From assembly GCA_021836725.1 (NCBI GenBank), contig JAKBHL010000006.1:21136-85135 (forward strand): 64,000 nucleotides of DNA, written 5' to 3'. The notes under the pieces are model-generated. The model did not search any database. It saw nothing but the letters and a program-made list of their open reading frames with translations, and had not been told where the DNA came from. The position numbers were made by a program, and so were the translations under genes. Each line of letters begins with the position of its first letter. The stretch's first letter is position 1. Shown one piece after another: positions 12,526 to 29,078 of this stretch. Origin of the DNA: a bacterium. Lineage in GTDB: Bacteria > Patescibacteriota > Minisyncoccia > Phycocordibacterales > Phycocordibacteraceae.

Positions 12526-13197
12526 ATGATATACGAATCAATTTATATGAAGTTTCCCCAAAACCAAAAAGAGAATATAGTCGGTCTTCATTTCTTATAT
12601 TCCCTAGAGTTCGAGATTTCGTATGTGCAGAATCTCGTGAAGAAATTTGTATGGTATCTGGAACAGGGATATCCTTCCGAGCTCATCCTGCTTCCACAAG
12701 GGGTGACTCAGCACTCGACAGAGGAAGAGGTCACGCAGGCGTTACAAGTCGAATACGATGCTGCCGATTATGCAGCATGTGCCGCGAGCCTACAGGAAGA
12801 ATGGAGAGATATCTCTGGAGGTTTTGAGAAGATGTGCAAGGAGCCAGTATTTCGTCTTGGAGACGAGTACAGCGTCGTCTTGACGAAGTACGGTACGGGG
12901 GGTAATTACAACGTCACTATGAGCCGAGTGACTATCCGTATCAATGCTCAGTCCTCCAAGAAGATGGCGGCGACTGTTGTGCACGAGATTATCCACATGA
13001 CCATCCAATACCTCATCGATCAGTATCGTGTGCGGCATTGGCGCAAAGAACGTCTCGTTGACTTGCTTGTCGAACGTTATTTCCCGGGGTTGAAGAAGAT
13101 GCAGATGATCAAAGAGGATGTTTCGATGGTCGATTCGGCGTTCAGTGAATCGTTTCCGGATATTGAAGCGATAGTACGGTCGATCCGATCATCGTGA
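12526..13197 (+). CDS. hypothetical protein with an HExxH motif (possible zinc-metallopeptidase-like fold)
   Basis: AATVVHEIIHMTIQYLIDQY. AT-rich codon usage unlike the neighbouring core genes. Confidence 0.4.
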   Translation: MIYESIYMKFPQNQKENIVGLHFLYSLEFEISYVQNLVKKFVWYLEQGYPSELILLPQGVTQHSTEEEVTQALQVEYDAADYAACAASLQEEWRDISGGFEKMCKEPVFRLGDEYSVVLTKYGTGGNYNVTMSRVTIRINAQSSKKMAATVVHEIIHMTIQYLIDQYRVRHWRKERLVDLLVERYFPGLKKMQMIKEDVSMVDSAFSESFPDIEAIVRSIRSS

Positions 13198-13257
13198 ATA
13201 ACGCGTCTGGGCGCGAAGGCGCTATCATCGACGGAAACATCCGATGAAGTAATATCA

Positions 13258-13287
13258 GTGTTAACAAGGTTAAACCTTGTTCTGACA
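13258..13287. repeat. 30-bp direct repeat, copy A (GTGTTAACAAGGTTAAACCTTGTTCTGACA; contains an AACAAGGTT-A-AACCTTGTT palindrome)
   Basis: Identical 30-mer recurs at 14804-14833. Confidence 0.8.
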
Positions 13288-13321
13288 CAAAAATATATTT
13301 AATTTAGTATTAACTCACAGT

Positions 13322-13573
13322 TTGGCATACGCTATAATTAAAAGCCTGGCAGAAGTAGCTAGAAAAATGAAGGAAGAAAACTTTACATTTCCGAGGGGTA
13401 CTTTACATAAAGTTTGTTGGGATATCTATCAGAAAGATAAGAGTGGTCAATATGAATCTGACTATGGAGATTTTTCTGAAATCGAGATCGATCAAATGGA
13501 AGACGAAAAATTTATTACAACGTTGCAGGATGAAATTAATTATTTAGAAAATAAATATGGACAAGCTACATAA
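13322..13573 (+). CDS. small acidic hypothetical protein
   Basis: AT-rich 83-aa ORF with no recognisable motif. Its 3' end overlaps the next gene by 17 nt. Confidence 0.35.
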   Translation: MAYAIIKSLAEVARKMKEENFTFPRGTLHKVCWDIYQKDKSGQYESDYGDFSEIEIDQMEDEKFITTLQDEINYLENKYGQAT

Positions 13574-14540
13574 AAAACACGTTCACAAGACAAAATCTGG
13601 CGGTACCGTCTCCCAATTCATTGAATCAAAGAATTTACCGGCGGATATCCAAATCAGTTCGTTCATAAATTTTGTCCATTTTGGAAGCGAGGTAATTTTG
13701 ACGCCGGACGACGGTACGTCTTGGGGCCCGGTTTCCGGGGAAATAAAAGGGCAAGTGGACTGGAGAAAAGAACTGGTGCGCGAGACAGGTGAAAAGGCCG
13801 GAGTGTTGGTTGATGGTGTGGTCTTGTGCGGATATATTTCAAATGAAAGTAAGGTAGGCGATTCCGATTCCGTTACGACAATCTCTCCCATATGTTATTC
13901 CTATTGTCACGATATTAATCCCACGTGGACTCCGAAAGGAATAATGACGAGAGAACTTTTTTCTCATTCCAATGTTAAGGAACACCTAGCGAAGAGAAAC
14001 GACGAGGGTCAGATGTTAGAACTGTATCTGTATATACACGACCAGTTTAATAGGGATCTGCGCATCGAATTTTCTTTTTTACCCGACGAAATGCCGGATG
14101 TCATATTCGTGACATCGGCAATGGTTTTTTGCATCGATGATGACAATCGAATATGCCTTGTTAAAGACGGTGATGAGGATTTTTATAGTCTACCCGGAGG
14201 AGGTCGTAGGCTTCTCGAATCTCCACTGGAATGTGCAAAGCGGGAACTGCAAGAAGAGGCTCAGATTACCGCGAAGAACTTCAAAATCTTTGGAAGCATA
14301 ATCGTTAGCTTCTATTCAAACGACGTCTTGATCTCTAAGATGCAACAAGCCAGGTATATTTGCGACGTAGATGTTATGGGGGAATTCATTCCTTTCAAAG
14401 ACGGTTTCGAGACGGATGAAAGAATATTCGTTCAGGCGGATCAACTTCTAACACTTGGTAAACAGTTCAAAAATAATAACGGCATCCAAATCGTTGAGCA
14501 TTTAATAAAGATACAACTTGATCGAGAACACAACGCTTGA
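13557..14540 (+). CDS. two-domain protein: unknown N-terminal domain plus C-terminal Nudix hydrolase domain
   Basis: LPGGGRRLLESPLECAKRELQEEAQI matches the Nudix box GX5EX7REUXEEXGU. Confidence 0.6.
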   Translation: MDKLHKKHVHKTKSGGTVSQFIESKNLPADIQISSFINFVHFGSEVILTPDDGTSWGPVSGEIKGQVDWRKELVRETGEKAGVLVDGVVLCGYISNESKVGDSDSVTTISPICYSYCHDINPTWTPKGIMTRELFSHSNVKEHLAKRNDEGQMLELYLYIHDQFNRDLRIEFSFLPDEMPDVIFVTSAMVFCIDDDNRICLVKDGDEDFYSLPGGGRRLLESPLECAKRELQEEAQITAKNFKIFGSIIVSFYSNDVLISKMQQARYICDVDVMGEFIPFKDGFETDERIFVQADQLLTLGKQFKNNNGIQIVEHLIKIQLDREHNA

Positions 14541-14561
14541 TATTGAAGATCAGCTGTAGCT

Positions 14562-14813
14562 ATGCATGTGAAGAGAATCCCGCAGGAGATTATAGGCAAT
14601 CGAGATATTAGCACGGTCACTCTCGATATTGATGGAACGATGGTTAATGAGTACGTAGAAATGCCGGACGAGATTATCGATGCGGTTCGTCAGTTACTAG
14701 GCGCGAAAGTGCACATTGTGATTTGTACAGCTCGCAGTATTGAGAGTATTCTAAAACTTTTCAAGAAATTCTTTTCCGAAGAGGAGATGAGTCTATTTTC
14801 CACTCCGTGTTAA
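14562..14813 (+). pseudogene. truncated HAD-superfamily (Cof-like) hydrolase; only the N-terminal 83 aa remain
   Basis: VTLDIDGTMVN is HAD motif I (DxDGT). The reading frame runs straight into the second copy of the 30-bp repeat and stops there. Full-length members are about 270 aa. Confidence 0.5.
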
Positions 14814-14833
14814 CAAGGTTAAACCTTGTTCTG
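14804..14833. repeat. 30-bp direct repeat, copy B
   Basis: Identical to 13258-13287. Confidence 0.8.
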
Positions 14834-15157
14834 ACAGCAAAAAATGCGAACATCCATCAGCAAGGATCAGTCCCTTGGCGTCCCAAAATGGACCGAGCGG
14901 ATGATTGAGAAGTTCGGACCTGAACTCACCATGCGGCAGCGAGGGAGGCCAAGAAAAGGTATCTGACACCATTTCCACCATTTCCATCAATTTTGGAGGC
15001 CGCACATATGTGCGGTATGTTGCCTCAAAAGGAACGTTCTTGCTCAACAATATGTTAATCTCTATAAAACTGCTATTGACGCTTATCAGGCTGATAAGCA
15101 GTTTGAACCTTGGTCGCATTTAACAAGAACGCTTCAAGCCCAATTTAAATAGTCGCT

Positions 15158-16078
15158 ATGCAAGAAATCTCTGAAGCTTTAAAGGAATATGGCCTGTCTG
15201 CGAACTCGCCTATAAATCTTGTTCGCGAATCTGCGGACAATGTTGTGTATGTTATTGGTGAAGATGATAAGAAAATCTTAAGAATTAGCAAAAGACTTTC
15301 TGTTGAAGATGTTGCTTTCGAATATGAAGCAATAAAATACCTCGCACAAAATGGTGTACCTGTAGCGCACTGGCTAACGACGAAAGCGGGGAAGGAATAC
15401 TCGTTGGTAGATGGCCACGCCGCAGTTCTTTTTGATTTTTTGACTGGCCATCATATAAATGTTGATAAAGATAATCTCCCGACACAAGTTCAAGCTTATT
15501 CCGCCGGAGCAGAGTTGGGTCGTATGAGTAATGCCGCCAGTACGTTTACATCAAATGCTCCGAGAACGAGAACTATTTTTTCTGAGCTCGAGCGCGTGCT
15601 CTCCCTTGAAGAAATGTTTGTTAAGGATTTTGAAGGCGGTGAGGAATTCGTTAACCAAGTTAAAGAAGCACTAAAATTCGGTAGAGCACAAAACGAGATA
15701 ATTGGCTTTATTCACAATGACTATCGTCCAAGCAATGTATTTTTTGATGAGAACGATCAAGTGACGGGAATAATCGATTTCGATTGGAGCTGCATGGGCC
15801 CAGTAGTTAAAGACTTAGCTCTAGCACTCGTGGAATGGTCTTTCCCAGATGGAGCCACCGAAGCAAATATGGCGCTATTCCAAGGATTCCTAGATGGATA
15901 CAATTCTATTTCGAATAAGAAGTGGAAGAAGGACGACAAACTCTATTCTTGGATTAAATTCGCCACTCTTTCTGATGCATCAACATATTTTTGCGACTTG
16001 GCTGAAGACCTGACTTCAACTAAGCGAATCATTAAGTCGTATATGTATCGAAAGTTCACGTTCTTTTCACAAGCCTAG
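15158..16078 (+). CDS. phosphotransferase (APH / choline-kinase-like) family kinase
   Basis: IHNDYRPSNVFF (Brenner HxDxxxxN catalytic loop) and GIIDFDW (DFG-equivalent) motifs. Confidence 0.65.
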   Translation: MQEISEALKEYGLSANSPINLVRESADNVVYVIGEDDKKILRISKRLSVEDVAFEYEAIKYLAQNGVPVAHWLTTKAGKEYSLVDGHAAVLFDFLTGHHINVDKDNLPTQVQAYSAGAELGRMSNAASTFTSNAPRTRTIFSELERVLSLEEMFVKDFEGGEEFVNQVKEALKFGRAQNEIIGFIHNDYRPSNVFFDENDQVTGIIDFDWSCMGPVVKDLALALVEWSFPDGATEANMALFQGFLDGYNSISNKKWKKDDKLYSWIKFATLSDASTYFCDLAEDLTSTKRIIKSYMYRKFTFFSQA

Positions 16079-16183
16079 TCATGGAGCCATATCTTTATTT
16101 GCAGGGTTTAAAGAAGCTTGCCAAAGAGGCCCGTGGAGATGAAGTAATACATATCGGGATAAGACCTGTGCTATAGTCTTTGC

Positions 16184-17269
16184 ATGACGGCGGAAACTCG
16201 CCCGGTCATCCTCACAGGCAACAACGAGGTTGCCAAGCTTCGAGCGTCCCATCCGGAGCTCGTCGAAGTCGACGCGTTCGTGCGCCAGCTAAAGGAGCTT
16301 TTCTTCATCGACAATCATGCGTTCATCGGTACGCCGAAAGAAGAGGCCTATGCGACCGAAGATTTCAAGAAGTATGCGTCTTCGAAAGAAGGCGCATTTG
16401 TCTATGTATATTTCCCCTGGAACAATACGCTCGTGAAGACCGTCGATGCCGGGGATTACTACCGGCTCAAGACGAATCGCAACCAAGACCTTATCACTGC
16501 CGAAGAACAGAAGAAGCTGCGCGACTACAAAGTCGCGGTGCTCGGGATGAGCGTCGGCTCCAACGTCGCATTCGTGCTCACGCAAGCGGGGATTTCAAAT
16601 GACATCATCCTCGCCGATTTTGACGAGCTCGATACCACCAATCTCAATCGCATCCTTGCCGGCGTGCATGAGGTCGGCTTGAATAAGACCGTCATCGCGG
16701 CGCATCGCATTTATGAAGACAATCCGTTTGCAAACGTCACCCTGCTCCAAGAGGGGATACATGAGACCAATCTCGAAGAGCTCATCAAAGCCGGCAAGAT
16801 AAACTGTATTCTCGAAGAGATTGATGACTTGCCGTTCAAGATTCACGCGCGCCTGCTCGCGATGAAATATAAGATTCCTGTGGTGATGGTGACCGACAAC
16901 GGCGACGGTGTCGTGCTCCACGTCGAACGGTACGATCTCGGCCACGACATGATCTGGGGCAAGCCGCACGAATACTACGAGGAAAAGCTCGCCGACGGCC
17001 CTATGACCAAAGAAAAAGCGGGCGACATCATCATCCACGACATCGTCGGCGGCGTGCACAGGGTCGATCCGAAAATGATCGCAAGCGTGAAGCGCGTGCT
17101 TGCCAAAGAACTGGTGTCGTGGAGCCAGCTCGGCTCGGCGGCGATCCTCGGTGCGGTTGTCGCGACCTACGCGATAAAAGAAATCGCGCTTGGCAAGGGA
17201 ACCAAGAAAGATATTCGTGTATGGATCAGCCCGGAGCAGGTTGAACACGGCACGCACGCCGCCTCGTAA
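16184..17269 (+). CDS. ThiF/MoeB (E1-like) family adenylyltransferase with an approximately 110-aa N-terminal extension
   Basis: Rossmann motif KVAVLGMSVGSNVAFVLTQAGI (GxGxxG) followed by DFDELDTTNLNR. TATAGT box 13 nt upstream of the ATG with no obvious SD. Confidence 0.65.
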   Translation: MTAETRPVILTGNNEVAKLRASHPELVEVDAFVRQLKELFFIDNHAFIGTPKEEAYATEDFKKYASSKEGAFVYVYFPWNNTLVKTVDAGDYYRLKTNRNQDLITAEEQKKLRDYKVAVLGMSVGSNVAFVLTQAGISNDIILADFDELDTTNLNRILAGVHEVGLNKTVIAAHRIYEDNPFANVTLLQEGIHETNLEELIKAGKINCILEEIDDLPFKIHARLLAMKYKIPVVMVTDNGDGVVLHVERYDLGHDMIWGKPHEYYEEKLADGPMTKEKAGDIIIHDIVGGVHRVDPKMIASVKRVLAKELVSWSQLGSAAILGAVVATYAIKEIALGKGTKKDIRVWISPEQVEHGTHAAS

Positions 17270-17271
17270 TC

Positions 17272-18366
17272 ATGTTTGGATTCAACGCGAACTCAGCAAA
17301 CGGCGATGTAACGAAAATACGGGAACTTCCGGAATTCGATGATCACGCGCTCGTCTCTTTCGCCGAAGATGAAGCATCGGGCTTGCGCGCAATCATTGCA
17401 GTGCACCGTGCCAATCCCGACGTGCCGTCTTTCGGCGCCACGCGTTTCTGGCACTATGCTTCTGATTTGGAAGGGGTAAAAGACGCGCTCCGCCTCTCGC
17501 GCCTCATGTCCTACAAAGCGGCGCTTGCAGGGTTGAAGTGCGGCGGCGCCAAGGGCGTTATTCTGGCGCCAAAGACAAACGGTATCGTGCGCAAAAAGCT
17601 CATTGAAGCGTATGCCGCGCGCGTCAACATTCTCGGGGGGCGTTTTGTCACCGGCACCGACGTGGGTATTTCGCAAGAAGATCTCGATACCATGCGGAGA
17701 GTTTCCCGCAATATCATCGGCTTCAACGACAATTCGACCGAGTTCACTGCCATCGGCGTCTTTGAGAGCGTCAAGGCGGCGCTTCAGGAGGTGTTCGGAT
17801 CGCCGGATGTTGCCGGGCGGTCGTTCGCTATCCAGGGCCTCGGCAAGGTGGGCGGCGGTCTCCTCAGCCTCTTGTACGGGCCGGCAGGGCCCGAGGCAAA
17901 GATTTACGTGTCCGATATCGATCTGGAACGGGTAGAGAGGATCAAGGCGAAGTATCCGCGCGTGATTCCGGTCGCACCGGAGGCGATCGATGCGCAAGAA
18001 GTAGATGTTTTCTCCCCGTGCGCGCTCTCGGGTGCGATCAACAAAAAGAGCATCGAACGCATCAAAGCGAAGATCGTCGCGGGCGGCGCGAACAATCAGC
18101 TTACCGATGAGGCGTCCGGCGACGCACTCCACGCGCGCAAGATTCTCTATGTGCCGGATTACGTCGCAAACGCCGGCGGCCTCGTCGCCGTCTTTGATGA
18201 ATACCAGAACCCCTCGTACGACCGTGCCCGGGTGGCGCAGGCGGCGCAGCACATTCCCGAGACGCTCCGGAAGATTTTCGCCGAGAGCCGTGCGGAGAAC
18301 ATTACACCCTCCCGCATCGCGAACCGCATGGCTGAGCGTATCTTTAATGGATATCCCGTAGCCTAG
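17272..18366 (+). CDS. Glu/Leu/Phe/Val-type amino-acid dehydrogenase
   Basis: KCGGAKGVI (catalytic Lys region), NAD-binding AIQGLGKVGGGL and PCALSGAIN, typical of leucine/phenylalanine/valine dehydrogenases. Confidence 0.7.
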   Translation: MFGFNANSANGDVTKIRELPEFDDHALVSFAEDEASGLRAIIAVHRANPDVPSFGATRFWHYASDLEGVKDALRLSRLMSYKAALAGLKCGGAKGVILAPKTNGIVRKKLIEAYAARVNILGGRFVTGTDVGISQEDLDTMRRVSRNIIGFNDNSTEFTAIGVFESVKAALQEVFGSPDVAGRSFAIQGLGKVGGGLLSLLYGPAGPEAKIYVSDIDLERVERIKAKYPRVIPVAPEAIDAQEVDVFSPCALSGAINKKSIERIKAKIVAGGANNQLTDEASGDALHARKILYVPDYVANAGGLVAVFDEYQNPSYDRARVAQAAQHIPETLRKIFAESRAENITPSRIANRMAERIFNGYPVA

Positions 18367-18370
18367 TGCT

Positions 18371-19918
18371 ATGAAATCTACTCTTAAATCACTGCAATCG
18401 CTCGCACTGCCCGGCAATCTCGCGGATATCGAAAAACTATCACTCGCACTCACGAATGATCGCCCAGAACTGTGGGAGAAGCGGGGCGATATGCAAGCTC
18501 TTAAATTATTCCGCGCAACGGCAGAGCGTGTCCCGGCCTACAGAGATTTTCTAAGGCGGAATAAAATCAACCCGGATTCGATTCGCACTATACAAGATTT
18601 CAAACAACTTCCGCTTCTCGATAAGGAAAACTATCTGCGAGCCTATCCTTTTGAAGATCTTTGTTGGGATGGGAAATTCTCCGAACGTGCCTGGACTATT
18701 TGTACGACCTCCGGCTCAACCGGGAAACCGTTCTATTTCCCGCACGGTCTTCTCCAAGACGCGCAGTACGCTCTTTTTGCGGAACTATATCTGCGCACCA
18801 ATTTTGAAATTCACAAAAAACGAACACTCTATATAAATGGGTTTCCGATGGGTGCGTGGATTGGCGGCGTGTTTACCTACAAAGCTGTCACGATGATTGC
18901 AGAACGTGGTAACTATCCGCTCAGTATCATTAATCCGGGGATCAATAAGGATGAAATCATAAAAGCGGTTCGGACCTTGGGATCGCATTTCGATCAAGTA
19001 ATCATCGGAAGTTACGGTCCTTTTCTCAAAGATACGCTCGACGACGGGGTTCGTGAGGGAATTGATTGGAAGAAATACAATCTGGGTTTCATCTTTTCTG
19101 CTGAAGGCTTCTCGGAAGGATTCAGAGATTATGTGCTTGAGGTGGCAGGGAAGAAGGATGATATAGCGGCAACCCTGAATCACTACGGAACTGTTGACCT
19201 GGGAACGATGTCGTACGAAACACCCCTGGCGATTCTCGCTCGCCGGCATGCGGTCGAAGATAGCAATCTCTACAAAGATATTTTCGATGACTCCGTGCGC
19301 TTGCCAACGTTCACGCAGTTCTTCCCGAACCTTTTCTTCTTTGAAGAAGTTGATCGAACGCTCATTTGCTCAGCACCGGCTGGCCTGCCGTTGGTGCGCT
19401 ATAACCTCAAGGATACCGGCGGCGTTTATACGTATGGAAAGGTTATAGAACTATTTAGCCGCCACAATATTGATCTCAACAAAGAACTTGCCGGTCGCAA
19501 TCTTGCACGTACGCAGTGGAATCTGCCCTTTGTATATGTGTATGAACGGAATGATTTCTCGGTCAGTTTTTATGCTTTCCAAATTTATCCCGCTACAATC
19601 CGTCGTGCACTGGAGCACCCATCACTGCGCTCGAAAATCACCGGAAAATTCTCGATGCGAGTTGGTTATGACCGGAATCAGAACCAACGATTTGAAATTA
19701 ATCTTGAACTCAAGAGCGGGGTAAAACGAGATAAGCCTTTTGAGGCAAAAGTAGTGCGTTTGGTTGTGGAACAACTACTCAAAGAGAGCTCCGAGTATCA
19801 GGAGACCTATCGCGAAAAACGACGTCGAGCATTACCGCATATCTTCTTCTGGCCGTACGAACACGAGCGTTTCTTCCGCCCCGGCATCAAACAGAAGTGG
19901 GTAATGCGTCAGTCATAA
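18371..19918 (+). CDS. PaaK-family (phenylacetate-CoA ligase / F390-synthetase-like) adenylate-forming enzyme
   Basis: TTSGSTGKPF AMP-binding P-loop near residue 115. Length and architecture fit the PaaK/CapK family. Confidence 0.65.
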   Translation: MKSTLKSLQSLALPGNLADIEKLSLALTNDRPELWEKRGDMQALKLFRATAERVPAYRDFLRRNKINPDSIRTIQDFKQLPLLDKENYLRAYPFEDLCWDGKFSERAWTICTTSGSTGKPFYFPHGLLQDAQYALFAELYLRTNFEIHKKRTLYINGFPMGAWIGGVFTYKAVTMIAERGNYPLSIINPGINKDEIIKAVRTLGSHFDQVIIGSYGPFLKDTLDDGVREGIDWKKYNLGFIFSAEGFSEGFRDYVLEVAGKKDDIAATLNHYGTVDLGTMSYETPLAILARRHAVEDSNLYKDIFDDSVRLPTFTQFFPNLFFFEEVDRTLICSAPAGLPLVRYNLKDTGGVYTYGKVIELFSRHNIDLNKELAGRNLARTQWNLPFVYVYERNDFSVSFYAFQIYPATIRRALEHPSLRSKITGKFSMRVGYDRNQNQRFEINLELKSGVKRDKPFEAKVVRLVVEQLLKESSEYQETYREKRRRALPHIFFWPYEHERFFRPGIKQKWVMRQS

Positions 19919-19930
19919 AGCTGAATTAGT

Positions 19931-20719
19931 TCATTTCTCCTCTCTATTTTTTATCTTGTTGGTATTAAGCCGTCCGGCTTCTTCCCACGCAAGATTGAAG
20001 AGGCTCTTCATAACATCTGCAATATCCTGGCTTTGAATAATCACGCCGAATTCCTCGCTTGTTGAAATAAATACGATTTTGTCCGCATATATACGCAGTT
20101 CAGAAGAAAATGGATATATATCGGCTGGCACACATCGTACTCTTGAGGCGCCACTCTCATTTAATGATGAGCGCTCGACAGTTTTTTCGTAGGGGGAAAT
20201 GATCTCCGTTTTATATTTACGTTGTAAATTTTGATTCTTCCAAAAGGAAAATGATGAGCCAGAAATAACTCCTGCTGATACAGGTAAAAATGTGTACACT
20301 TGCGTCCCCTGCGGGTAGGCTAGCAGGTCATTACTAACAGTTTGTATTCCACCAACCCCTTCGTAAAACAATACATGTGGCTGGCTCTTTAGCTTCTTCG
20401 ATACCGAGAGAAGTTCGGAAAGCAATAAATTCATTTCATTTTCCTGTCGAGCTGAGCCCCGAGCCAACTTATCAGCTCGTTCCACAAGTTTTTCTGGGGA
20501 GACAGCGTAGTATTTAAGAATCCCGTTCTGCTGTGTTTTCTCGACAAATCCCTGCTTTACAAGTGTGGCAAGTAACATATAGGCCGACGACCGATTGAGT
20601 TTTGCTTCTCTTGCGGCCTCACGCGCGCTTGCCGGACCCATAGTAAGTAATCCCTGATAAAGTACAGCCGCTTTTTCCGAAAGTCCAAATTCTTGGAGAT
20701 GTGACAGTAGAGTATTCAT
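19931..20719 (-). CDS. TrmB-family transcriptional regulator
   Basis: N-terminal winged HTH LSEKAAVLYQGLLTMGPASAREAAREAKLNRSSAYMLLATLVKQGFVEK plus a C-terminal TrmB-like domain. Paralogous to the next gene. Confidence 0.6.
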   Translation of the reverse strand: MNTLLSHLQEFGLSEKAAVLYQGLLTMGPASAREAAREAKLNRSSAYMLLATLVKQGFVEKTQQNGILKYYAVSPEKLVERADKLARGSARQENEMNLLLSELLSVSKKLKSQPHVLFYEGVGGIQTVSNDLLAYPQGTQVYTFLPVSAGVISGSSFSFWKNQNLQRKYKTEIISPYEKTVERSSLNESGASRVRCVPADIYPFSSELRIYADKIVFISTSEEFGVIIQSQDIADVMKSLFNLAWEEAGRLNTNKIKNREEK

Positions 20720-21495
20720 GGAAATTCATCACCTATCCGTCGCGCTTCCCCGATCGCAAGGTCGAAAATTGTCTTCATCAATTCCGCAATTTCCTTACTC
20801 CTAATGAACGCTGTAAAAAGGAACGTGTGCGACATAAAAATCGTCTTATCATCGTAGACAGCAAAATCAGCAGGGAATCGATACTTGTCTTCCGAGATAA
20901 AGAAATGCGTATCCAAATCCTTAGACACGGGCATATTCTTAAATGCATTCATACTGCGAGGCTCTGCTGGATGAATCCCAACCATACCGATGTTTCTTTC
21001 CATCCGTTTTTGGACATAGGAAGGTAGATAATCGGGCAAGGTTCTAAAAATTTCAGGGCCGGAGGAAATGACCCGCATATATCCCTCTTTTAGAGAAAGG
21101 CTGTCATCAAATCCGTCTATTAACCCCTGCCGTCCTTCAAGTATAGTAACTTTGGGCCTGTAACGTGCCCCTCGATGTTTCGAGGAAAGTGCCGGAAGCA
21201 TGATCCGCAGATTTTTACTAAGTAGCTCGTGCCTTTCAGTCTTTTCTTTTGCTAGTTGCAGAAGATGTTCGGGTGGGGCAGCCACATATTTTCTGACCCC
21301 ATGAGTGGTTCCGATGCTTACGAGCCCTTGCTTGATAAGCCGTTCAAGGACCACATACATTGAACTACGATTGATACCTGTCTCCTTGCTAACCAGCTGA
21401 ACTGTGGCTCCGTCGAGAGACAAAAGCGCAAGATAAACCTGAGCATCCTTTTCAGGAAGTCCTAGTGCAGAAAGTCGTTTTGCGAGGGGTGTCAT
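20716..21495 (-). CDS. TrmB-family transcriptional regulator (paralog)
   Basis: LPEKDAQVYLALLSLDGATVQLVSKETGINRSSMYVVLERLIKQGLV. Its stop overlaps the downstream paralog's start by 4 nt. Confidence 0.6.
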   Translation of the reverse strand: MTPLAKRLSALGLPEKDAQVYLALLSLDGATVQLVSKETGINRSSMYVVLERLIKQGLVSIGTTHGVRKYVAAPPEHLLQLAKEKTERHELLSKNLRIMLPALSSKHRGARYRPKVTILEGRQGLIDGFDDSLSLKEGYMRVISSGPEIFRTLPDYLPSYVQKRMERNIGMVGIHPAEPRSMNAFKNMPVSKDLDTHFFISEDKYRFPADFAVYDDKTIFMSHTFLFTAFIRSKEIAELMKTIFDLAIGEARRIGDEFP

Positions 21496-21652
21496 ATAGG
21501 CACAACAGGCGGGAACTCACCTCGCCCATTTGTTGTCAGATATTAGCAACAATATGAAATATGGACAAGACAGCCACTTACTGAGATGGAGATAATCCAG
21601 GCCGATATTTTTGGTGTCATTTCGGACATCTTCAAAATAGAGTTGTTATAAA

Positions 21653-22045
21653 TTGACAACGATTATCTTTGAACCAAACATCTATCATATGGGTATTAAT
21701 CAGCCGTTCAGAAGAGATAAATTCTATCGTGATCGCGACAGTTACGCCGAATGGTGGACAATTGGGTGTTCTGCGTGTGCTCAAAAAGTGCTTCTCTATC
21801 AAAAAGATGGACACGGTAAATTATATCGTTGCTATCTAAATCGAATTTTTGCTCCATCAGACTATGCAAATCTTCAGTATGATTCAAGATTGACGGTAAA
21901 AAAACTACCCAATCTTGTTTGTGCACACTGTAAGAATCTTCTCGGAATCCCCATGCTTCATTGGGAAGGCAGGCTTGCGTTTCGACTAATCAAAGGACGT
22001 TGGGTAAGACGTAAAGCACAGCAATCCGATGAATGGAAAATCTAA
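21653..22045 (+). CDS. small protein with a four-Cys zinc-ribbon-like motif
   Basis: CSAC...CAHC Cys pairs. Overlaps the next gene by 17 nt. Confidence 0.4.
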   Translation: MTTIIFEPNIYHMGINQPFRRDKFYRDRDSYAEWWTIGCSACAQKVLLYQKDGHGKLYRCYLNRIFAPSDYANLQYDSRLTVKKLPNLVCAHCKNLLGIPMLHWEGRLAFRLIKGRWVRRKAQQSDEWKI

Positions 22046-22748
22046 AGATATAATACGGACTGTACGGAAAATCCTTATTCCAAAGGGGAAGAGGATACAA
22101 GTCGTTGAGTGCGGAGTAAAGAAGTATCTACTCGTCACACGAAAAGGCGTTGGCGCAATTCATACACCATATGGATATTTTTGGCAATATGATTTTCATG
22201 TTAATGATGAATGGGAGAAATATTCTGTCTTAGTACGCGCTTCGCTGAATGGGCAATTCAATCCAGTTTTTACTCGTAAAAACCTGTTGCTCCGCATAGA
22301 TTCTGGATGCGAGACGGGGCAACTCTTTCATGACAACACATGCGAATGTCGTGAACAATTGCATCTAGCATTACAAAGAATTGACGAATACGGAGAAGGG
22401 ATCATTGTGCACATCCCTTCTCAAGATGGGCGTGGTGGTGGGTTGGCTTTCAAGCTTGCAACACTGCTTCTCGAAAAGGATTTGGGGATGGATACGATAG
22501 AAGCCGCACGTGTTCTTACTGACGGGGGCGAAATAGATTTTCGAACCTATGGAGGTGTAGTTGGTATCTTGAAATTCTTCCGCGCCCAGAAAGAAGTATT
22601 TCTTATGACGAACAATCCGCTCAAGATCTCAGCTCTCACTGAAAATAAATATAAAATATCACGCCTAAATATCGTTGTCCCACCAACACGCTTCACTGCT
22701 AGACATTTGCGTGCCAAAGAGCAAGAGCTCGGACATATGCTTTCATGA
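22029..22748 (+). CDS. GTP cyclohydrolase II (RibA)-family protein
   Basis: RIDSGCETGQLFHDNTCECREQLHLALQRIDEYGEGIIVHIPSQDGRGGGLAFK...LMTNNPLKISALTE aligns with the RibA zinc motif CxxGxxxxxxxCxC and the C-terminal LTNNPxK region. Confidence 0.7.
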   Translation: MNGKSKDIIRTVRKILIPKGKRIQVVECGVKKYLLVTRKGVGAIHTPYGYFWQYDFHVNDEWEKYSVLVRASLNGQFNPVFTRKNLLLRIDSGCETGQLFHDNTCECREQLHLALQRIDEYGEGIIVHIPSQDGRGGGLAFKLATLLLEKDLGMDTIEAARVLTDGGEIDFRTYGGVVGILKFFRAQKEVFLMTNNPLKISALTENKYKISRLNIVVPPTRFTARHLRAKEQELGHMLS

Positions 22749-23545
22749 CGGAGCAGTTAACCATTTCGCTGCGGGGATTGTCTGCATCTGGGAAGGGCAC
22801 AATAGCGCCGATTCTTGCAAAAGAACTTAACGTACAGCATATAGATTGCGGACTATTGTTCAGAGCAATAGCGTTGTATATATGCGAACATCAAATTACG
22901 AGCAAACATCTTTTCCTAGAGAAAGTTCGTATTCGAATGATATGCGAAACGGTGTTCATTGTTGAAGAAAAAACATATCCTCGCGAGCAATTGCAAACTG
23001 AAAAGGTCGGATATCTTGCGGCTGAGTTGGCCAAAAGCCACAGCGAACAGCTTGTGTCATTAGTGAATGAACTGCTATCGAGTATGTCGCGAGTTGTCGT
23101 AGATGGGCGAAACGCAGGATTGAATATTCTCCCTAATCCGGACTTTTCTTTTTTCCTTCAAGCAAGTTTGAAGTCGCGTATCCAACGACGGTATGAGCAA
23201 GAAAGGTTTATTAATAAGGAAATAAAGAAATCAGAGATAAAATCTTCTCTCATCAAAAGAGACACTGTTGATCAAAAACGTGACAGAAAGCTCACAGAAC
23301 CCCAATTAAATGAGCACATCATCGTAACAGATGGGAAGACTCCATTACAATGCGCTAGAGAAATTGTCTCCGTAGTCAGAATTAAGACAAAAATGTTGGC
23401 ATGGACTGCAGTAGATAAACATGGAGATTTTTTCACTTATGAAGATGGAACAGTAGTTGTGGTAAGAAATAAGAGCCAGATACCTATCAGAGTGCGAGAA
23501 AGCGAGGAATATTCCGTGGTTAAAATAGAACTCAAGTTTGCGTAA
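22745..23545 (+). CDS. cytidylate-kinase-like P-loop nucleotide kinase with a C-terminal extension
   Basis: ISLRGLSASGKGTIAPILAKELNVQHIDCGLLFRAIAL resembles the Cmk N-terminus (P-loop plus the D.G..YR region). ATGA start/stop overlap with the upstream gene. Confidence 0.55.
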   Translation: MTEQLTISLRGLSASGKGTIAPILAKELNVQHIDCGLLFRAIALYICEHQITSKHLFLEKVRIRMICETVFIVEEKTYPREQLQTEKVGYLAAELAKSHSEQLVSLVNELLSSMSRVVVDGRNAGLNILPNPDFSFFLQASLKSRIQRRYEQERFINKEIKKSEIKSSLIKRDTVDQKRDRKLTEPQLNEHIIVTDGKTPLQCAREIVSVVRIKTKMLAWTAVDKHGDFFTYEDGTVVVVRNKSQIPIRVRESEEYSVVKIELKFA

Positions 23546-23666
23546 TTACCTCTATTGATAGAGACTTCAGTTGAGGGACATCTAGTTAGTCCCTCACCAC
23601 GACTGAGGTTGGCGTTTCTTAAATCGATTATAATGGAACTGTAGAGATTTTTTTAACCCCACGAAT

Positions 23667-24728
23667 ATGGTTCCCGATAACACAATTCTTCTTGAAATTC
23701 TGCGAGATGCTTGTCGAGCGCCTTCCGGCGATAATGTCCAGCCGTGGCGTTTTCGATGGGATGGTTCGACACTATCCCTCTACAACATCCCTGACATCCA
23801 CAACCCATACCTTGATTTTGAGGAACGCGGCGCATATATCGCACATGGTGCGCTCCTCGAGAACCTCGCGATTGCCGCCCCGCATTACGGCTATAACGCC
23901 TCGATAACACTCTTTCCGGATCTGGGGGTGCCCGATTTGGTCGCATGCATCGCCTTTGCACCTAGCGTTGCGTATGATGACCCGCTGTATACGGCGATAT
24001 CGAAGCGCGCAACGAATCGCCGCCCGTATGCATCACGCGCACTTACGTCCGATACACGCGTCGCGCTCAGAGACGTTGCGATGCCTAAAGATATAACACT
24101 CATTCTCATCGAAGACACCACAAAAAAAGAAGCGCTCGCACCGCACATAAGCGCAATGGAGCAACTCTTACTCGGTCATCCGGCTCTATCAAGTGCATTC
24201 TTCAGTCATATCGTATGGACGAAACGTGAAGAACGCGTAAGACGTAGCGGATTCTACATAAAGACCATGGAGTTCAATCCAGTGCAGGCATTCGTATTCA
24301 AGCTCGCAAGTAAACCCTGGCTTATGCGCGCGTTCCGCAAACTCGGGCTCCCCGCACTCATCGCGAATGAGAATGCCAAACTGTACAGGGGAGGCTCGGC
24401 ACTCGGGGGATTGCACGCGTCAGATTTTTCCAGAACTAGCGCAATTGCGCTAGGGCGTGCGCTCGAGCGCGTCTGGCTCACGGCTACGACGTTCGGACTC
24501 GCGTTCCAACCACTTTTTGGTACCACTATGATGGGGTACAAGTCGCGCCACGGCGAAGCGATGTTCCTCTCGGACGCGGAACGTACCGCCATTGAAGCAA
24601 ACGCGCGCTCTCTTGAGGCAACGTTCAAGAACACACATGATACGCCGACACTTATCTTCCGTGTTGGCTATGCTCAGGAGCCGAGTGCGTATACGTCTCG
24701 GAAGGAACCGAACATAGTTTATAATTAA
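23667..24728 (+). CDS. nitroreductase-family protein (tandem nitroreductase-like fold)
   Basis: CRAPSGDNVQPWRF N-terminal nitroreductase signature. The 353-aa length implies two nitroreductase-like halves. TATAAT at about 23630. Confidence 0.6.
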   Translation: MVPDNTILLEILRDACRAPSGDNVQPWRFRWDGSTLSLYNIPDIHNPYLDFEERGAYIAHGALLENLAIAAPHYGYNASITLFPDLGVPDLVACIAFAPSVAYDDPLYTAISKRATNRRPYASRALTSDTRVALRDVAMPKDITLILIEDTTKKEALAPHISAMEQLLLGHPALSSAFFSHIVWTKREERVRRSGFYIKTMEFNPVQAFVFKLASKPWLMRAFRKLGLPALIANENAKLYRGGSALGGLHASDFSRTSAIALGRALERVWLTATTFGLAFQPLFGTTMMGYKSRHGEAMFLSDAERTAIEANARSLEATFKNTHDTPTLIFRVGYAQEPSAYTSRKEPNIVYN

Positions 24729-24735
24729 AGCACCC

Positions 24736-26334
24736 ATGGGTGCTCTTGCGAATTTTGATCTCTTGTCGGTAGGCGTCGCCATCGCGGGCACGCTCGTGCT
24801 CGGGTTCGTCATTTATTTCACCGATCAGAAGAGTGGTACGAATCGCATCTTTTTCGCGTTCGCGTTCGTCACCGCGATATGGGGCTTGCTCAACTATCTC
24901 AGTTATCGCGTCGAGGATCTATCCGTCGCGTTTGCACTCCTACGTTTCGAACTTGCGCTCGCCGTGTGGCAAACGTTCATAATCTTTCGGCTTCTGCTCA
25001 TCTTCCCGGACCGCGACGATGTACTTCCACGGCGCTATCTGCTCGCGCTTGTCGTGTACGCGGGCGTCGTATCCGTGCTGTGCCTCACGCCATTCGTCTT
25101 TGAGCGCATCACTACAGTTACCGCCACGGGGTATATCAAAGACATAGCCGTCGGGCCGGCAATCGCGCTCTTCGGCGTCACGAGTATAGGGTTCGTCCTT
25201 GCAGGGTGGATAGTGTGCGCCCGGAAGACGTTCCGCCTCAGGGGCGCACAGCGTGCGCAAACGGGTTTCTTCCTGCTCGGGGCGATTGCGATGTTCTTGC
25301 CAATCATCATTCTGAACTTCATCTTTCCAGCATTCTTGCGGGATTCGAGATTCGTTCCGTATGGCGCGGTCTCAATATTCCCGTTCGTGCTGTTCACGTC
25401 TTACGCAATCCTGCGTTTCCATTTGTTCAACATCAAGGTCATTACGACGTCCATACTCGTATTCGTGCTTTCCATCGTTTCATTTGGGCAGATTCTTTTC
25501 TCGGGCACACTGCCTGCGATGCTGTTCCAAGCGAGCGTTTTCATGCTCGTGCTCGTATTCGGCATCAACCTGATCAGGAACGTTATCCGGGAAGTGGAGC
25601 AGCGGGAAAAGATACAGAAACTCGCGAAAGAATTGGAGGAGATCAATAAACGGCAGGAAACACTCATCCACTTCATCGGGCACGAGGTGAAGGGGTTCCT
25701 GACCAAGGCTGAGGGCGCATTCGCGTCGCTTACCGACGGTGATTTTGGCCAGTTGCCTGAGGAACTGAAGCCGTTCGTCGAGCGCTCATTCGCCGAGACC
25801 CGGCAAGGCGTTGGTTCGGTCGAGGACATCCTCAAGGCGTCGAACATCAAGAAGGGAACTGTGGCATACGCCAAAGAGCCATTCGATCTGAAAGCGCTCG
25901 TGACAGAAGCGGTCGAGAAGGCAAAGATGGCGGCCGCCCAGAAAGGTCTTGCGCTTACTCTCGTCGCAGACGACGCGTCGTATCAGATGACTGGCGACAG
26001 AGCGCAAATCAACGACCACGTCCTGCGCAACCTCATCGACAACGCTATCAACTACACGCCATCGGGTTCTATCGTGGTCTCGCTCGCGCACGAGAACGGC
26101 AAGGTCGTCTTCGCCGTGAAAGACAGCGGCATCGGCATCACCGACGAGGACAAACAGCGTCTTTTCACCGAGGGCGGCCACGGCAAGGACTCGCAGACGA
26201 TCAACGTGCACTCCACCGGCTACGGTCTCTACATCGCAAAACAGATTACCGAGGCGATGGGCGGCACGATCCGCGCCGAGTCCGAAGGCGCGGGGCGAGG
26301 GTCTACATTCATCGCGGAATTTCCTGCGGGATAG
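24736..26334 (+). CDS. sensor histidine kinase with multi-pass membrane N-terminal domain
   Basis: About 7 TM helices, H-box HFIGHEVKGF, and an HATPase_c C-terminus GYGLYIAKQITEAMGGTIRAESEGAGRGSTF. Confidence 0.8.
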   Translation: MGALANFDLLSVGVAIAGTLVLGFVIYFTDQKSGTNRIFFAFAFVTAIWGLLNYLSYRVEDLSVAFALLRFELALAVWQTFIIFRLLLIFPDRDDVLPRRYLLALVVYAGVVSVLCLTPFVFERITTVTATGYIKDIAVGPAIALFGVTSIGFVLAGWIVCARKTFRLRGAQRAQTGFFLLGAIAMFLPIIILNFIFPAFLRDSRFVPYGAVSIFPFVLFTSYAILRFHLFNIKVITTSILVFVLSIVSFGQILFSGTLPAMLFQASVFMLVLVFGINLIRNVIREVEQREKIQKLAKELEEINKRQETLIHFIGHEVKGFLTKAEGAFASLTDGDFGQLPEELKPFVERSFAETRQGVGSVEDILKASNIKKGTVAYAKEPFDLKALVTEAVEKAKMAAAQKGLALTLVADDASYQMTGDRAQINDHVLRNLIDNAINYTPSGSIVVSLAHENGKVVFAVKDSGIGITDEDKQRLFTEGGHGKDSQTINVHSTGYGLYIAKQITEAMGGTIRAESEGAGRGSTFIAEFPAG

Positions 26335-26960: not shown

Positions 26961-27437
26961 CTATGAAAGCGTTCTGTAGAACGACTCCACTTCACTAATG
27001 AGCATATTCTTCAAATAAAAAATCGGTATTTGCAATGATTCACCGGCATTATGCTCCCATTGACTCCCTATGCTTGTCTCCCACAACGGGAGAAAAACTA
27101 ATCCTGATATTTTCCCCGATTTTAAAATCGGATTGTAGAAGAAATCGAGCAGGGGGTAATCATACTCGTGGTGGTCTCTCAAAATATCGTCCAGTCGTTT
27201 TTCATATGAGACTTGATTGAACACAGATATCCCCCTTCTTTTTGCCGCTTGTATCATGGAATGCAAGCAATCTAGATTTTCTGTCACACTTCCGAGACCA
27301 CCTGTCGAAATCGGTCCGCAAAATTGAATGACCGGAGACTTAAGCCTTGATATTTCCAAGAGCGCTTCCTCCACTAGTTCGGTCAGTTCCTTTTTATACT
27401 TGCTTTCTGTATCTTCGCGTGATTTTTGACTATTCAT
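26961..27437 (-). CDS. hypothetical protein (possible nucleoside 2-deoxyribosyltransferase-like / DUF4406-like fold, low confidence)
   Basis: VIQFCGPISTGGLGS resembles the YLAGP-type motif of that fold. AT-rich. Divergent from the CYTH-domain gene. Confidence 0.4.
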   Translation of the reverse strand: MNSQKSREDTESKYKKELTELVEEALLEISRLKSPVIQFCGPISTGGLGSVTENLDCLHSMIQAAKRRGISVFNQVSYEKRLDDILRDHHEYDYPLLDFFYNPILKSGKISGLVFLPLWETSIGSQWEHNAGESLQIPIFYLKNMLISEVESFYRTLS

Positions 27438-27476
27438 AGCATTTACTATATAGTATACATTGTCCTAATAATATAT

Positions 27477-29078
27477 ATGCTTTCGCTCAAAGAACAGCAG
27501 CGTCGGCTCTCCGTTAACGTTATTAATTACTCACTTGAGGGGATGTGGAGTTCTCACCCACTCATTTCAGAACTCAGAAAAAGGGTTTCTGCTTTTCTGC
27601 CTAAAGAAGGGATTTATGACCCTCAGGATCTTGAACATCAAGCGTTATTCAGGCTAACGACGTTCGACCCAAAAGTCATAAATGACGAGCTCATTCAGTT
27701 TGTTGTCCAAGAGCAATACGAGGTGGTGAAGGATCGCCTGAATAAACTCGATTACGATACGGAGTATCTATTCAGAGGGCTTACGGGGAAATACCACGAC
27801 CTTAATGTAAACGACCGCCTCGAACTGCGATGGGAAAATGAACAACTCATCGCCAAAAATGATCGGCGATCGTTTAATGTCGAATTCCGGACCGTGCATG
27901 ACGAAAACATTGTTTCCCTATTTTCTAACGAACTCCACTATATTCACCAGGACCGGCCCAAGGGAGAGACTTTCGGATTTTATTTCGTCGGCGACACTAT
28001 ACCGTGGGCGATAGAGACAACAGAACCTTCTGCGATTGCAAAGCAGTACAAGAGAGATGCTCTGCTTGCAAATGGGATAGATCCGAACAAAGCCATCGAA
28101 CTCACCCGATTCTACACATTGCCGGGCGCACCAGTAAATGCTATCTCACTGATGGACGGATTGGTGGCAAGACACTACAAACAAAAAGGCATTGAAGCGC
28201 TCTATACAACCACCATGCCGATGTACTCGAAAACGAAAGGGACTACAATAGCGGGTGGCGTCAACAAACCATTACTCGTCAAAGATCTGCGACATAAATT
28301 CATCCCGGAAAAAATAGACGGTAGGATATTCTATCGACACGTGACAACAATCCCGGAAGATCACAAAGAAATCGAAGTTATAAAAACACATCCGAATTTC
28401 CCGACCATGCTTGTTGTCGAAGTCTTCCGCACGTTAAATGATCCAGGATTAAAACCGATTCCCATACTCGAAGACAAGTCAAAGGTTATCTATGTCATCC
28501 AAAGAGACGGCGCGAAGCTTGAAGAAGAGGTCAAGCTCGCCGTGCAAGATATCCCGGCGGTACTCGCGAAAATCCGTTCTGTAGCGAAGTATGTCCGGAC
28601 CGAATACGTACGGGATGTGATCTATGGCACGAAAGATGAGAAAAAGAAGATCCGTCTGCGGATACAGGATAACTTCGAGTTCCGTCTCGTCGACGCCACC
28701 TACAAATATCGTGTAGCGGTCGAAGACGGGGTTAAGAAAGAGATTGAAGAGACCCTCTATAAAGGAAACTCTTGCGAAGATGCTCTGAAATTCATCGCTT
28801 CACAAGGCGACTTCGTCGAGGAGAATTCATATGAAAAAATAAGAACCGTCTTCATCAGCCCTCACGGTACCGAGATTACGCTTGATATCTATCCTTATGG
28901 AGCGTGGGTTGAGATTGAGGGCGAAACCCGCAAGATTCATGACGTCGCGAAACAACTCGGCTTTACACAGAAAGATTACATTGACACGGGTGCGGACGAT
29001 CTTTATCTCGCTTGGATAAAGAAATATAATCTCTCCGAGATGTGGGATGTTCGCTTCGGCTTGAGCGGCAATAAATAG
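27477..29078 (+). CDS. large protein with a C-terminal CYTH-like (class IV adenylyl cyclase / triphosphate-tunnel) domain and an unknown N-terminal region of about 380 aa
   Basis: C-terminal RLRIQDNFEFRLVDATYKYRV...ISPHGTEITLDIYPYGAWVEIEGE fits the CYTH beta-barrel pattern (ExE...K...LD.v.glG.fvEiE). Start placed at the ATG downstream of a TATA-rich promoter-like stretch. Confidence 0.5.
   Translation: MLSLKEQQRRLSVNVINYSLEGMWSSHPLISELRKRVSAFLPKEGIYDPQDLEHQALFRLTTFDPKVINDELIQFVVQEQYEVVKDRLNKLDYDTEYLFRGLTGKYHDLNVNDRLELRWENEQLIAKNDRRSFNVEFRTVHDENIVSLFSNELHYIHQDRPKGETFGFYFVGDTIPWAIETTEPSAIAKQYKRDALLANGIDPNKAIELTRFYTLPGAPVNAISLMDGLVARHYKQKGIEALYTTTMPMYSKTKGTTIAGGVNKPLLVKDLRHKFIPEKIDGRIFYRHVTTIPEDHKEIEVIKTHPNFPTMLVVEVFRTLNDPGLKPIPILEDKSKVIYVIQRDGAKLEEEVKLAVQDIPAVLAKIRSVAKYVRTEYVRDVIYGTKDEKKKIRLRIQDNFEFRLVDATYKYRVAVEDGVKKEIEETLYKGNSCEDALKFIASQGDFVEENSYEKIRTVFISPHGTEITLDIYPYGAWVEIEGETRKIHDVAKQLGFTQKDYIDTGADDLYLAWIKKYNLSEMWDVRFGLSGNK

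Follow-up and report, generated by a model that had tools for sequence, protein, structure and literature searches.

A five-gene cluster conserved in Patescibacteria as a candidate pathway for an amino-acid-derived oxazolone-type compound

Described oxazolone systems and a cluster shared across Patescibacteria

According to a 2025 review, oxazolone formation of the OxzB type is the only validated reaction of a ThiF-like enzyme on a small molecule. TrzS, of the TrzAS pair of Mycobacterium (Rv1356c/Rv1355c), performs the ATP-dependent cyclisation and then the O2-dependent desaturation of N-acyl-tryptophan to N-acyl tryptazolone (PMC12856293), and the same reactions are carried out with tyrosine and phenylalanine by TyzB/TyzC (PMC10404671) and OxzB (10.1101/2020.06.11.147165). 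Oxazolones do not survive acid or alcohols (PMC12856293). A 64,000-nucleotide stretch of a Patescibacteria genome (positions 21,136 to 85,135 of contig JAKBHL010000006.1, assembly GCA_021836725.1, family Phycocordibacteraceae; hereafter the window) encodes a cluster of five proteins with a core related to this chemistry: a ThiF-like adenylyltransferase (E1), an amino-acid dehydrogenase (DH), a PaaK-fold ligase (LIG), a nitroreductase-superfamily flavin oxidase (FDO), and a seven-transmembrane (7TM) sensor histidine kinase (Table 1). As judged from sequence, the cluster most likely builds an amino-acid-derived ring compound of the oxazolone type, a reading held at slightly better than even.

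The window E1 matches the N-terminal half of TrzS-type proteins, including the extension that precedes the Rossmann core, and the window FDO matches the C-terminal half, with relatives in the Candidate Phyla Radiation (CPR) having the same ThiF::FDO fusion architecture as TrzS. The CPR cluster differs from TrzAS in that the acyl-CoA N-acyltransferase TrzA is absent and the PaaK-fold ligase stands in its place, in the arrangement as separate genes split by an insert in the window, in family scores below the cutoff, in the added DH (or aminotransferase) and 7TM kinase, and in phylum (Actinomycetota for TrzAS). In TyzACB of M. tuberculosis (PMC10404671), a stand-alone ThiF protein (TyzB) and an FDO (TyzC) share one operon, as in the unfused arrangement of the window, and the chemistry is that proposed here, ATP-dependent cyclisation and desaturation of an N-acyl aromatic amino acid. 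However, TyzB is shorter than the window E1 (318 aa), no ligase, DH, or kinase is present, and the amide is made from lauroyl-CoA by TyzA, an acyltransferase resembling acyl-homoserine lactone synthases. OxzAB of Pseudoalteromonas rubra (de Rond et al. 2021) contains the founding small-molecule ThiF-nitroreductase di-domain enzyme and has the reaction logic proposed here, but it is proteobacterial and its partner is the acyl-CoA-using N-acyltransferase OxzA. By score, the window E1 is nearer the TrzS-type model than the PRK14851/14852 models of other ThiF-FDO fusions. The same ThiF and nitroreductase pair occurs in the NasY clusters (stieleriacines, thalassotalic and kyonggic acids), which are known only from Pseudomonadota, Actinomycetota, and Planctomycetota, and whose stable end product can be a ring-opened N-acyl-2,3-dehydroamino acid (PMC12479983). 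Their hallmark N-acyl amino acid synthase (NAS) is absent in the CPR cluster.

An earlier sequence-only reading of the window had described the E1, DH, and ligase genes as a tight operon and knew of no described system with this composition. That statement holds in part: the ThiF-FDO core is known (OxzAB, 2021; TyzACB, 2023; TrzAS, 2025), and its combination with a PaaK-fold ligase, DH, and 7TM kinase is undescribed in the literature searched. Relative to the known core, the phylum is new, and so are the acylation enzyme, the added DH or aminotransferase, and the dedicated 7TM kinase; neither Patescibacteria nor a partner of the ligase type is mentioned in the oxazolone papers or came up in a full-text search. 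The three genes of the earlier reading are real, as each has hundreds of homologues at E < 1e-130, but the functional unit is larger. The FDO and kinase genes also belong to it and were overlooked because the insert separates them from the ligase. In the neighbourhoods of divergent homologues, genes for a ThiF protein, an ELFV dehydrogenase, a protein of ~510 aa, a nitroreductase-like protein of ~350 aa, and a HisKA_7TM kinase are colinear.

Homologues of the E1 number at least 511, of which the top 120 share 60-97% identity, and they come from Parcubacteria/Paceibacterota metagenome bins. In a species-level scan with a single genome for each GTDB species, 30 loci were recovered. All look like Patescibacteria, with a few bins carrying other taxonomic labels. 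In a profile-based census, 24 loci were long enough to judge all five functions, and E1, DH or aminotransferase, ligase, FDO, and kinase occurred together in 21 of these, so that the proposed operon is co-conserved across genomes in its enlarged form. The ligase adjoins the E1 in 25/26 loci, the FDO is adjacent in 22/30 species-level loci, and in the same number the kinase lies directly 3' of the FDO, often overlapping it. Gene ends in the cluster frequently overlap, and in many loci translation of the kinase is coupled to that of the FDO. The DH is replaced by a HisC-like aminotransferase in loci L003/4, L009, and L015, and the conserved requirement therefore appears to be the interconversion of an amino acid and a 2-oxo acid. 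Across L001-L036, identity was 56-97% for the E1, 36-78% for the DH, 36-76% for the ligase, 34-63% for the kinase, and 22-52% for the FDO; the far higher conservation of the E1 compared to its partners may reflect several protein-protein contacts.

Gene fusions tie the enzymes together. A single ThiF::FDO protein of 718-761 aa is encoded in Roizmanbacteria and Saccharibacteria (L037/38 and L039/40), between the same ligase and 7TM kinase. A ligase profile search against 1.84 billion representatives recovered 762 clusters (50% identity) at E ≤ 1e-30, among them the fusions DH::LIG (P0265), LIG::ThiF (P0241), ThiF::LIG (P0323), and DH::LIG::ThiF (P0308). The DH, ligase, ThiF protein, and FDO therefore act in one pathway, and the domain order of the fusions suggests that the steps would run from DH to ligase to ThiF to FDO.

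Family assignment of the five proteins

The family calls of the earlier reading (ThiF; Glu/Leu/Phe/Val-type dehydrogenase; PaaK/F390-like) hold when assessed with Pfam, NCBIfam, and predicted folds, and all of the peptide motifs it quoted are present in the translations. For the E1, Pfam places ThiF at residues 100-235 (74 bits), and the top NCBIfam match is the Rv1355c family at 211 bits (residues 15-340 on model positions 26-326 of 722), with ThiF as the next family (65 bits). The ThiF, MoeB, TcdA, and SAMP-E1 models score 25-65 bits, compared to cutoffs of 150-650 for models of E1s that serve ubiquitin-like (Ubl) proteins or sulfur carriers. With an annotated Rv1355c-family protein encoded on a Mycobacterium plasmid, the E1 shares 33% identity over residues 74-338 (E = 2e-42). 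In a joint alignment of CPR E1s, CPR ThiF::FDO fusions, a Streptomyces homologue, and this annotated protein, the nucleotide-binding set G121, S123, G125, D147, N153, N155, R156, and D214 was invariant. The adenylation motif set is thus intact, including D214 as the putative equivalent, by motif position, of TrzS D217 and ThiF D127. Also invariant were D30, Q35, E38, P78, W79, R99, N100, and T105 of the N-terminal extension, and because these residues are shared with TrzS-type proteins the extension of ~100 aa is taken as a signature of the oxazolone-synthetase-type cyclase clade, and not as the MccB clamp or fused Ubl-recognition domain that had been suggested for it. An AlphaFold2 (AF2) model of the E1 (pLDDT 82.6) shows the extension, with confidence, as a compact alpha/beta domain. 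The best match of the E1 core in the PDB is AclA (9egb), for which no paper was found and whose chemistry was not used. Together, the E1 is predicted from its sequence to be an ATP-dependent carboxylate-adenylating cyclase of the TyzB/TrzS-N/OxzB-N type. A stand-alone ThiF protein of 390 aa is encoded on a plasmid of Streptomyces sp. NBC_01426 (L043, 8923-10697), with 32% identity to the window E1 over residues 6-338, N-terminal domain included; its gene overlaps the start of a GNAT acetyltransferase gene, no FDO is nearby, and it may be another acyl-amino-acid cyclase variant.

The ligase had no match in Pfam and scored only 31-35 bits on the NCBIfam PaaK/F390 models (32.5 and 35.5 on the PaaK models, with cutoffs of 646 and 700). 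Its AF2 model (pLDDT 88) has a confident PaaK-type fold, and Foldseek gave PaaK1 (2y27) as the best structural match (E = 8.5e-21, TM-scores 0.65/0.78), along with BT_0428 and 2-hydroxyisobutyryl-CoA ligase (HCL; with PaaK1, E = 1e-21 to 1e-14) and the amide ligase ClxA (9s3l, E = 7.5e-13). The P-loop TSGSTGKP is common to PaaK and the window ligase, and invariant in the family are the P-loop TSGSxG and A7-, A8-, and A10-like residues (R343/Y344/D348, E392/R393/D395, T424-G-K426). The ligase differs from PaaK in its low identity (15%), in the paa gene context, none of which is found here, and in a C-terminal extension of ~85 residues with an invariant G505.K507-Q508.W510. On the predicted fold, it is placed only in the wider PaaK-fold branch of the ANL enzymes and not among PaaK equivalogs.

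The ~40 CPR loci examined have neither a NAS nor a GNAT acyltransferase within the cluster; a lone GNAT-type gene was seen in L002, two genes past the kinase. This absence, the conserved position of the ligase and its fusion to ThiF, and the precedent of ClxA, NatL2, and AjiA1 lead us to infer that the ligase would make an N-acyl amino acid with ATP, independently of CoA, in place of an acyl-CoA N-acyltransferase. ClxA, NatL2, and AjiA1 are PaaK-fold adenylases with C-terminal cap extensions that form amides or esters directly, without CoA (PMC12519233). The window ligase shares the PaaK-type fold and a C-terminal extension with them, though the extensions give no evidence of homology, identity is ~14%, the known enzymes are smaller (~400-430 vs 515 aa), and they act on aminohydroxybenzoate substrates in benzoxazole pathways. 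Outside of the CPR, a ligase homologue with 32% identity in Nonomuraea gerenzanensis (L045, 6759-14365) has a HisKA_3 histidine kinase and a response-regulator-SpoIIE phosphatase on its flanks, which links the ligase family to signal-transduction genes there too, and a homologue in Gemmatirosa is accompanied by a weak FDO-like open reading frame (ORF) only.

The DH matches the Pfam domains ELFV_dehydrog_N (PF02812, 46 bits) and ELFV_dehydrog (PF00208, 77 bits), both above the gathering score, and scores 277 bits on the ScyB Trp-DH model (cutoff, 600), remaining below every equivalog cutoff. Full-length matches were obtained to LeuDH (3vpx, 2.9e-67), TrpDH (5b37, 6e-61), and PheDH (3e-44). Homology to LeuDH (1LEH/6ACF), PheDH (1C1D), and the TrpDH ScyB (5B37) includes the catalytic Lys/Lys/Asp, with equivalents of K68, K80, and D115 invariant in 34/34 cluster DHs, and on sequence the protein is placed as a NAD(P)-dependent L-amino-acid dehydrogenase of the Leu/Phe/Trp-DH branch. 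The cluster DHs have Gly at the position of LeuDH A113 (34/34), Leu at V291 (32/35), and Phe at L40 (29/34). The Gly/Leu pair is presumably the large-pocket pattern of PheDH, as in mutagenesis of PheDH G124/L307. The window DH is set apart from the Leu, Phe, and Trp dehydrogenases by this PheDH-like Gly/Leu together with the Phe at LeuDH L40, and by its place in a biosynthetic cluster, where it is sometimes fused. Judged by the pocket and by the HisC-type aminotransferase that can take the place of the DH, the probable substrate is a bulky or aromatic amino acid or 2-oxo acid, as in the known oxazolones; the product may serve in either role, a 2-oxo acid as acyl donor or an amino acid as acceptor.

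For the FDO, NCBIfam scores are 172 bits for the Acg family, 163 bits for PRK14851, and 159 bits for positions 374-715 of the Rv1355c model, and the motif APSxxNxQPW, R114, and R118 are invariant. The kinase (532 aa) begins 7 nt after the FDO stop codon. Receiver-only response regulators adjoin the kinase in 7 loci; none was found in this window.

Proposed pathway and rival explanations

In the proposed route, the DH or the HisC-like aminotransferase would convert between an L-amino acid, large and hydrophobic or aromatic, and the matching 2-oxo acid, in a direction that can only be suggested, and, going by its family, would supply one of the two ligase substrates. The ligase would adenylate a carboxylic acid and hand the acyl moiety straight on to an amino acid at its amino group, giving an N-acyl amino acid without CoA, a step proposed from gene context and precedent. 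By homology to TrzS, TyzB, and OxzB, the ThiF-like enzyme would then adenylate the alpha-carboxylate, attack by the amide oxygen would close a 5(4H)-oxazolone, and the FDO, as a homologue of TyzC and the TrzS C-terminal domain, would desaturate the C-alpha/C-beta bond. Optionally, an alpha/beta hydrolase might open the ring to an N-acyl-dehydroamino acid, as in stieleriacine-type compounds. Roizmanbacteria-type clusters and some others (L037, 11788-12702; L041, 10582-11499) have such a hydrolase gene inserted between the kinase and the cyclase (or ThiF::FDO), and it could encode a ring-opening or signal-turnover enzyme; by analogy, the ring-opened end products of the NasY clusters may be relevant to it. 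The 7TM kinase may, more speculatively, sense the product or control the pathway. The earlier suggestion of small-molecule conjugation, based on two adenylating enzymes around an amino/2-oxo-acid interconversion, holds in general.

Several observations weigh against the oxazolone assignment. Taken together, the E1 and FDO score ~370 bits on the NCBIfam Rv1355c model and the CPR ThiF::FDO fusions 351-381 bits (positions 11-645 of 722), all below the cutoff of 476, and the CPR proteins are therefore relatives and not equivalogs. The FDO is only 24% identical to the C-terminal half of the Rv1355c-family protein (E = 1e-16), and the known FDOs use O2. The sequence of the ligase, at 15% identity to PaaK, does not tell amide from CoA thioester formation, and neither a ThiF nor an FDO gene lies within 9 kb of the full-length homologue in Nonomuraea. 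The assignment of a PheDH-type pocket to the DH leans on the mutagenesis literature. Some loci depart from the full set, with L003/4 and L015 lacking an adjacent FDO or kinase, L034 lacking an FDO, and L019 missing the ligase. Finally, the FDO and kinase genes here lie apart from the E1-DH-ligase genes and must, because of this, have their own transcript.

Other readings share part of this evidence. It is rather unlikely that the same four enzymes close a different ring, with the ligase joining an amino acid to a second one or to a 2-oxo acid, to give a six-membered product of the diketopiperazine, diketomorpholine, or pyrazinone type that is then desaturated in the manner of AlbA (albonoursin). 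Sequence does not define which nucleophile attacks the acyl-adenylate, the nitroreductase-family AlbA offers a precedent in its desaturation of cyclic dipeptides (cited by de Rond et al., 10.1101/2020.06.11.147165), the DH suggests that a 2-oxo acid participates, and the E1 is far more conserved than its TrzS-type relatives predict in addition to being below the family cutoff. Yet oxazolones, formed from N-acyl amino acids, are the products of all the closest characterised relatives of the E1 and the FDO alike, no cyclodipeptide synthase or nonribosomal peptide synthetase is present, and a six-membered product has no positive evidence in its favour. Comparably low weight is given to an otherwise canonical oxazolone route in which the ligase, as a conventional acyl-CoA or acyl-carrier ligase, supplies an N-acyltransferase whose gene lies elsewhere. 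Its closest fold and sequence matches are indeed CoA ligases (PaaK1, BT_0428, and HCL) and the JGI annotates the family as phenylacetate-CoA ligase, but scores of 31-35 bits are far from the PaaK equivalog cutoffs, the only GNAT-type gene in ~40 loci sits beyond the kinase, and direct fusions of the ligase to ThiF and DH fit consecutive steps.

Two further explanations are very improbable. In one, the DH and ligase would belong to a catabolic route from phenylalanine through phenylpyruvate to phenylacetyl-CoA, with an unrelated E1, as might be expected of a DH with a PheDH-like pocket that adjoins a PaaK-fold ligase. The window ligase is far from the PaaK equivalogs, neither a 2-oxo-acid decarboxylase or oxidoreductase nor paa ring-oxidation genes are present, and co-conservation and fusions link the E1, FDO, and kinase to the DH and ligase; the fusions contradict this reading. 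In the other, the E1 would activate a Ubl protein or, like MccB or PaaA, a ribosomal peptide, with the remaining enzymes tailoring the conjugate. The fold does resemble Uba5, ThiF, MoeB, and MccB, and in the microcin C7 synthetase MccB, as in the window E1, an N-terminal domain precedes the E1-like core. However, MccB ranks 35th or lower among fold matches with a root-mean-square deviation of ~12 Å, has no sequence match to the window E1 outside the Rossmann core, and acts on an MccA-like peptide for which the window has no counterpart, and the N-terminal domain is instead common to the small-molecule cyclases. The predicted order of its elements also differs from that of MccB and of the recognition element (RRE) of peptides made on the ribosome and modified after translation (RiPPs), the topology of which is beta-beta-beta-alpha-alpha-alpha. 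The single Cys of the E1 (C208) is not conserved and there is no CxxC, no credible GG-ended ORF was found in the window from 5 to 32 kb, no conserved small ORF ends in GG or Asn, and no Ubl, E2, JAMM, RiPP transporter, or immunity genes were found in any neighbourhood examined. A role for the E1 as a Ubl activator, which the sequence-only reading had entertained as a conjugation variant, and one as a MccB/PaaA-type RiPP enzyme were both rejected on these grounds.

The oxazolone route could also be part of a larger scheme, in which the cluster is a self-contained CPR signalling module that makes an autoinducer-like oxazolone or N-acyl-dehydroamino acid and reads it with the 7TM kinase as receptor, joined in several lineages by receiver-only response regulators. 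This is doubtful at present.

Locus layout, flanking DNA, and implications

The three plus-strand genes for E1, DH, and ligase are separated by 2 and 4 nt and are GC-rich, as reported earlier, with GC contents of 0.52-0.58 compared to 0.41-0.47 in the flanks on both sides. An extended -10-like box ends 6 nt before the E1 start codon, and an equivalent TGnTAnAnT box occurs 6-14 nt 5' of the start codon in 8/10 relatives (loci with the box: the window, L001, L005/L006, L007, L009, L011, and L012). The box is not accompanied by a Shine-Dalgarno sequence and is kept across relatives though the remaining upstream DNA is unrelated. A generic scan for sigma-70 promoters and terminators over 15-27 kb did not rise above the shuffled expectation, so that the case for this candidate promoter is one of positional conservation only. 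Because of the recurrence of the box, it is plausible that the E1 operon of Paceibacteria has a leaderless or near-leaderless transcript, as was proposed from the window sequence.

Table 1. Features of the cluster and its surroundings in the window
Feature	Coordinates	Strand	Basis or description
AT-rich accessory patch	12526-16078		upstream flank
HAD-like fragment	14562-14813		83 aa, DIDGT motif
APH/homoserine-kinase-like phosphotransferase	15158-16078		
31-codon ORF	16081-16176		
Extended -10-like box TGcTATAGT	16169-16177	+	probable promoter; TG at 16169-16170, TATAGT at 16172-16177
ThiF-like E1	16184-17269	+	361 aa, Pfam ThiF
Amino-acid dehydrogenase (DH)	17272-18366	+	364 aa, both ELFV Pfam domains
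PaaK-fold ligase (LIG)	18371-19918	+	515 aa, predicted fold
AT-rich insert splitting the cluster	19919-23666		3.75 kb; GC, Pfam/NCBIfam, comparison of loci
Cys-rich ORF in insert	21653-22045		130 aa
GTP-cyclohydrolase-II-like gene in insert	22029-22748		
CMP-kinase-like gene in insert	22745-23545		
TATAAT	23629-23634		candidate promoter element
FDO, nitroreductase-superfamily flavin oxidase	23667-24728	+	NCBIfam Acg family, Rv1355c C-half
Sensor histidine kinase	24736-26334	+	532 aa; Pfam HisKA_7TM (residues 16-233) + HATPase_c
Second AT-rich stretch	26961-29078		3' of kinase

The insert that splits the cluster has a GC content of about 0.43-0.45, compared to 0.52-0.58 in the E1-DH-ligase genes, and is not part of the pathway. 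It holds two tandem TrmB-like regulators on the minus strand, in agreement with the earlier assignment of two such genes downstream, and a Cys-rich ORF, a GTP-cyclohydrolase-II-like gene, and a CMP-kinase-like gene, the ends of which overlap. The insert is common to L005/L006 (97% relative; identical proteins) and partly to L007 (94%), and is absent from L009-L013, from the relatives at 81-82% E1 identity, and from most others, where the FDO directly follows the ligase. No terminal repeats were found at its boundaries, and PADLOC returned weak HTH and P-loop matches only for the insert and the flanking accessory genes. A TATAAT at the end of the insert could drive a candidate separate transcription of the FDO and kinase.

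The 31-codon ORF upstream of the E1 has no counterpart in relatives 94-97% identical, for which reason it is considered a chance ORF. As a precursor peptide it was ruled out, and the sequence-only reading was right to reject an MccA-like substrate. The APH kinase was ruled out as a member of the cluster, as the upstream flank differs in the 97% relative, and APH genes near other loci are not orthologous to that of the window. The surrounding accessory patch also encodes a 223-aa protein without a family match, a 327-aa protein with a C-terminal NUDIX domain, and a HAD-like fragment that resembles a truncated pseudogene; L005 has an entirely different flank in place of the patch. The second AT-rich stretch contains a 158-aa ORF (minus strand) and a 550-aa ORF (plus strand), neither of which has a match in Pfam or PADLOC, and HicA-toxin-like genes occupy the matching position in L005. 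Class Ib aminoacyl-tRNA synthetase genes of Tyr/TrpRS size lie near the cluster in several unrelated loci (L002, 14408-15352; L003, 2975-4177; L041, 88-5846), a proximity that may be due to chance in gene-dense small genomes.

Specialised metabolites are thought to be few in the Patescibacteria, whose genomes are very small; nevertheless, the cluster is kept in most of the Paceibacteria examined, and in Microgenomates and Saccharibacteria. The assignments correct the routine annotations of the E1 as a ‘molybdopterin/thiamine biosynthesis adenylyltransferase’ and of the ligase as a ‘phenylacetate-CoA ligase’. If the oxazolone reading is true, ThiF-FDO chemistry would reach a fourth phylum, with a CoA-independent route to the N-acyl amino acid precursor, and a conserved CPR small molecule would be tied to a dedicated sensor kinase, making it experimentally approachable how episymbionts sense partners or one another. 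Should the more doubtful signalling module prove true, the molecule would be made from scavenged amino acids using only ATP, which suits a minimal metabolism, and would give episymbionts a means of cell-cell or symbiont-host communication.

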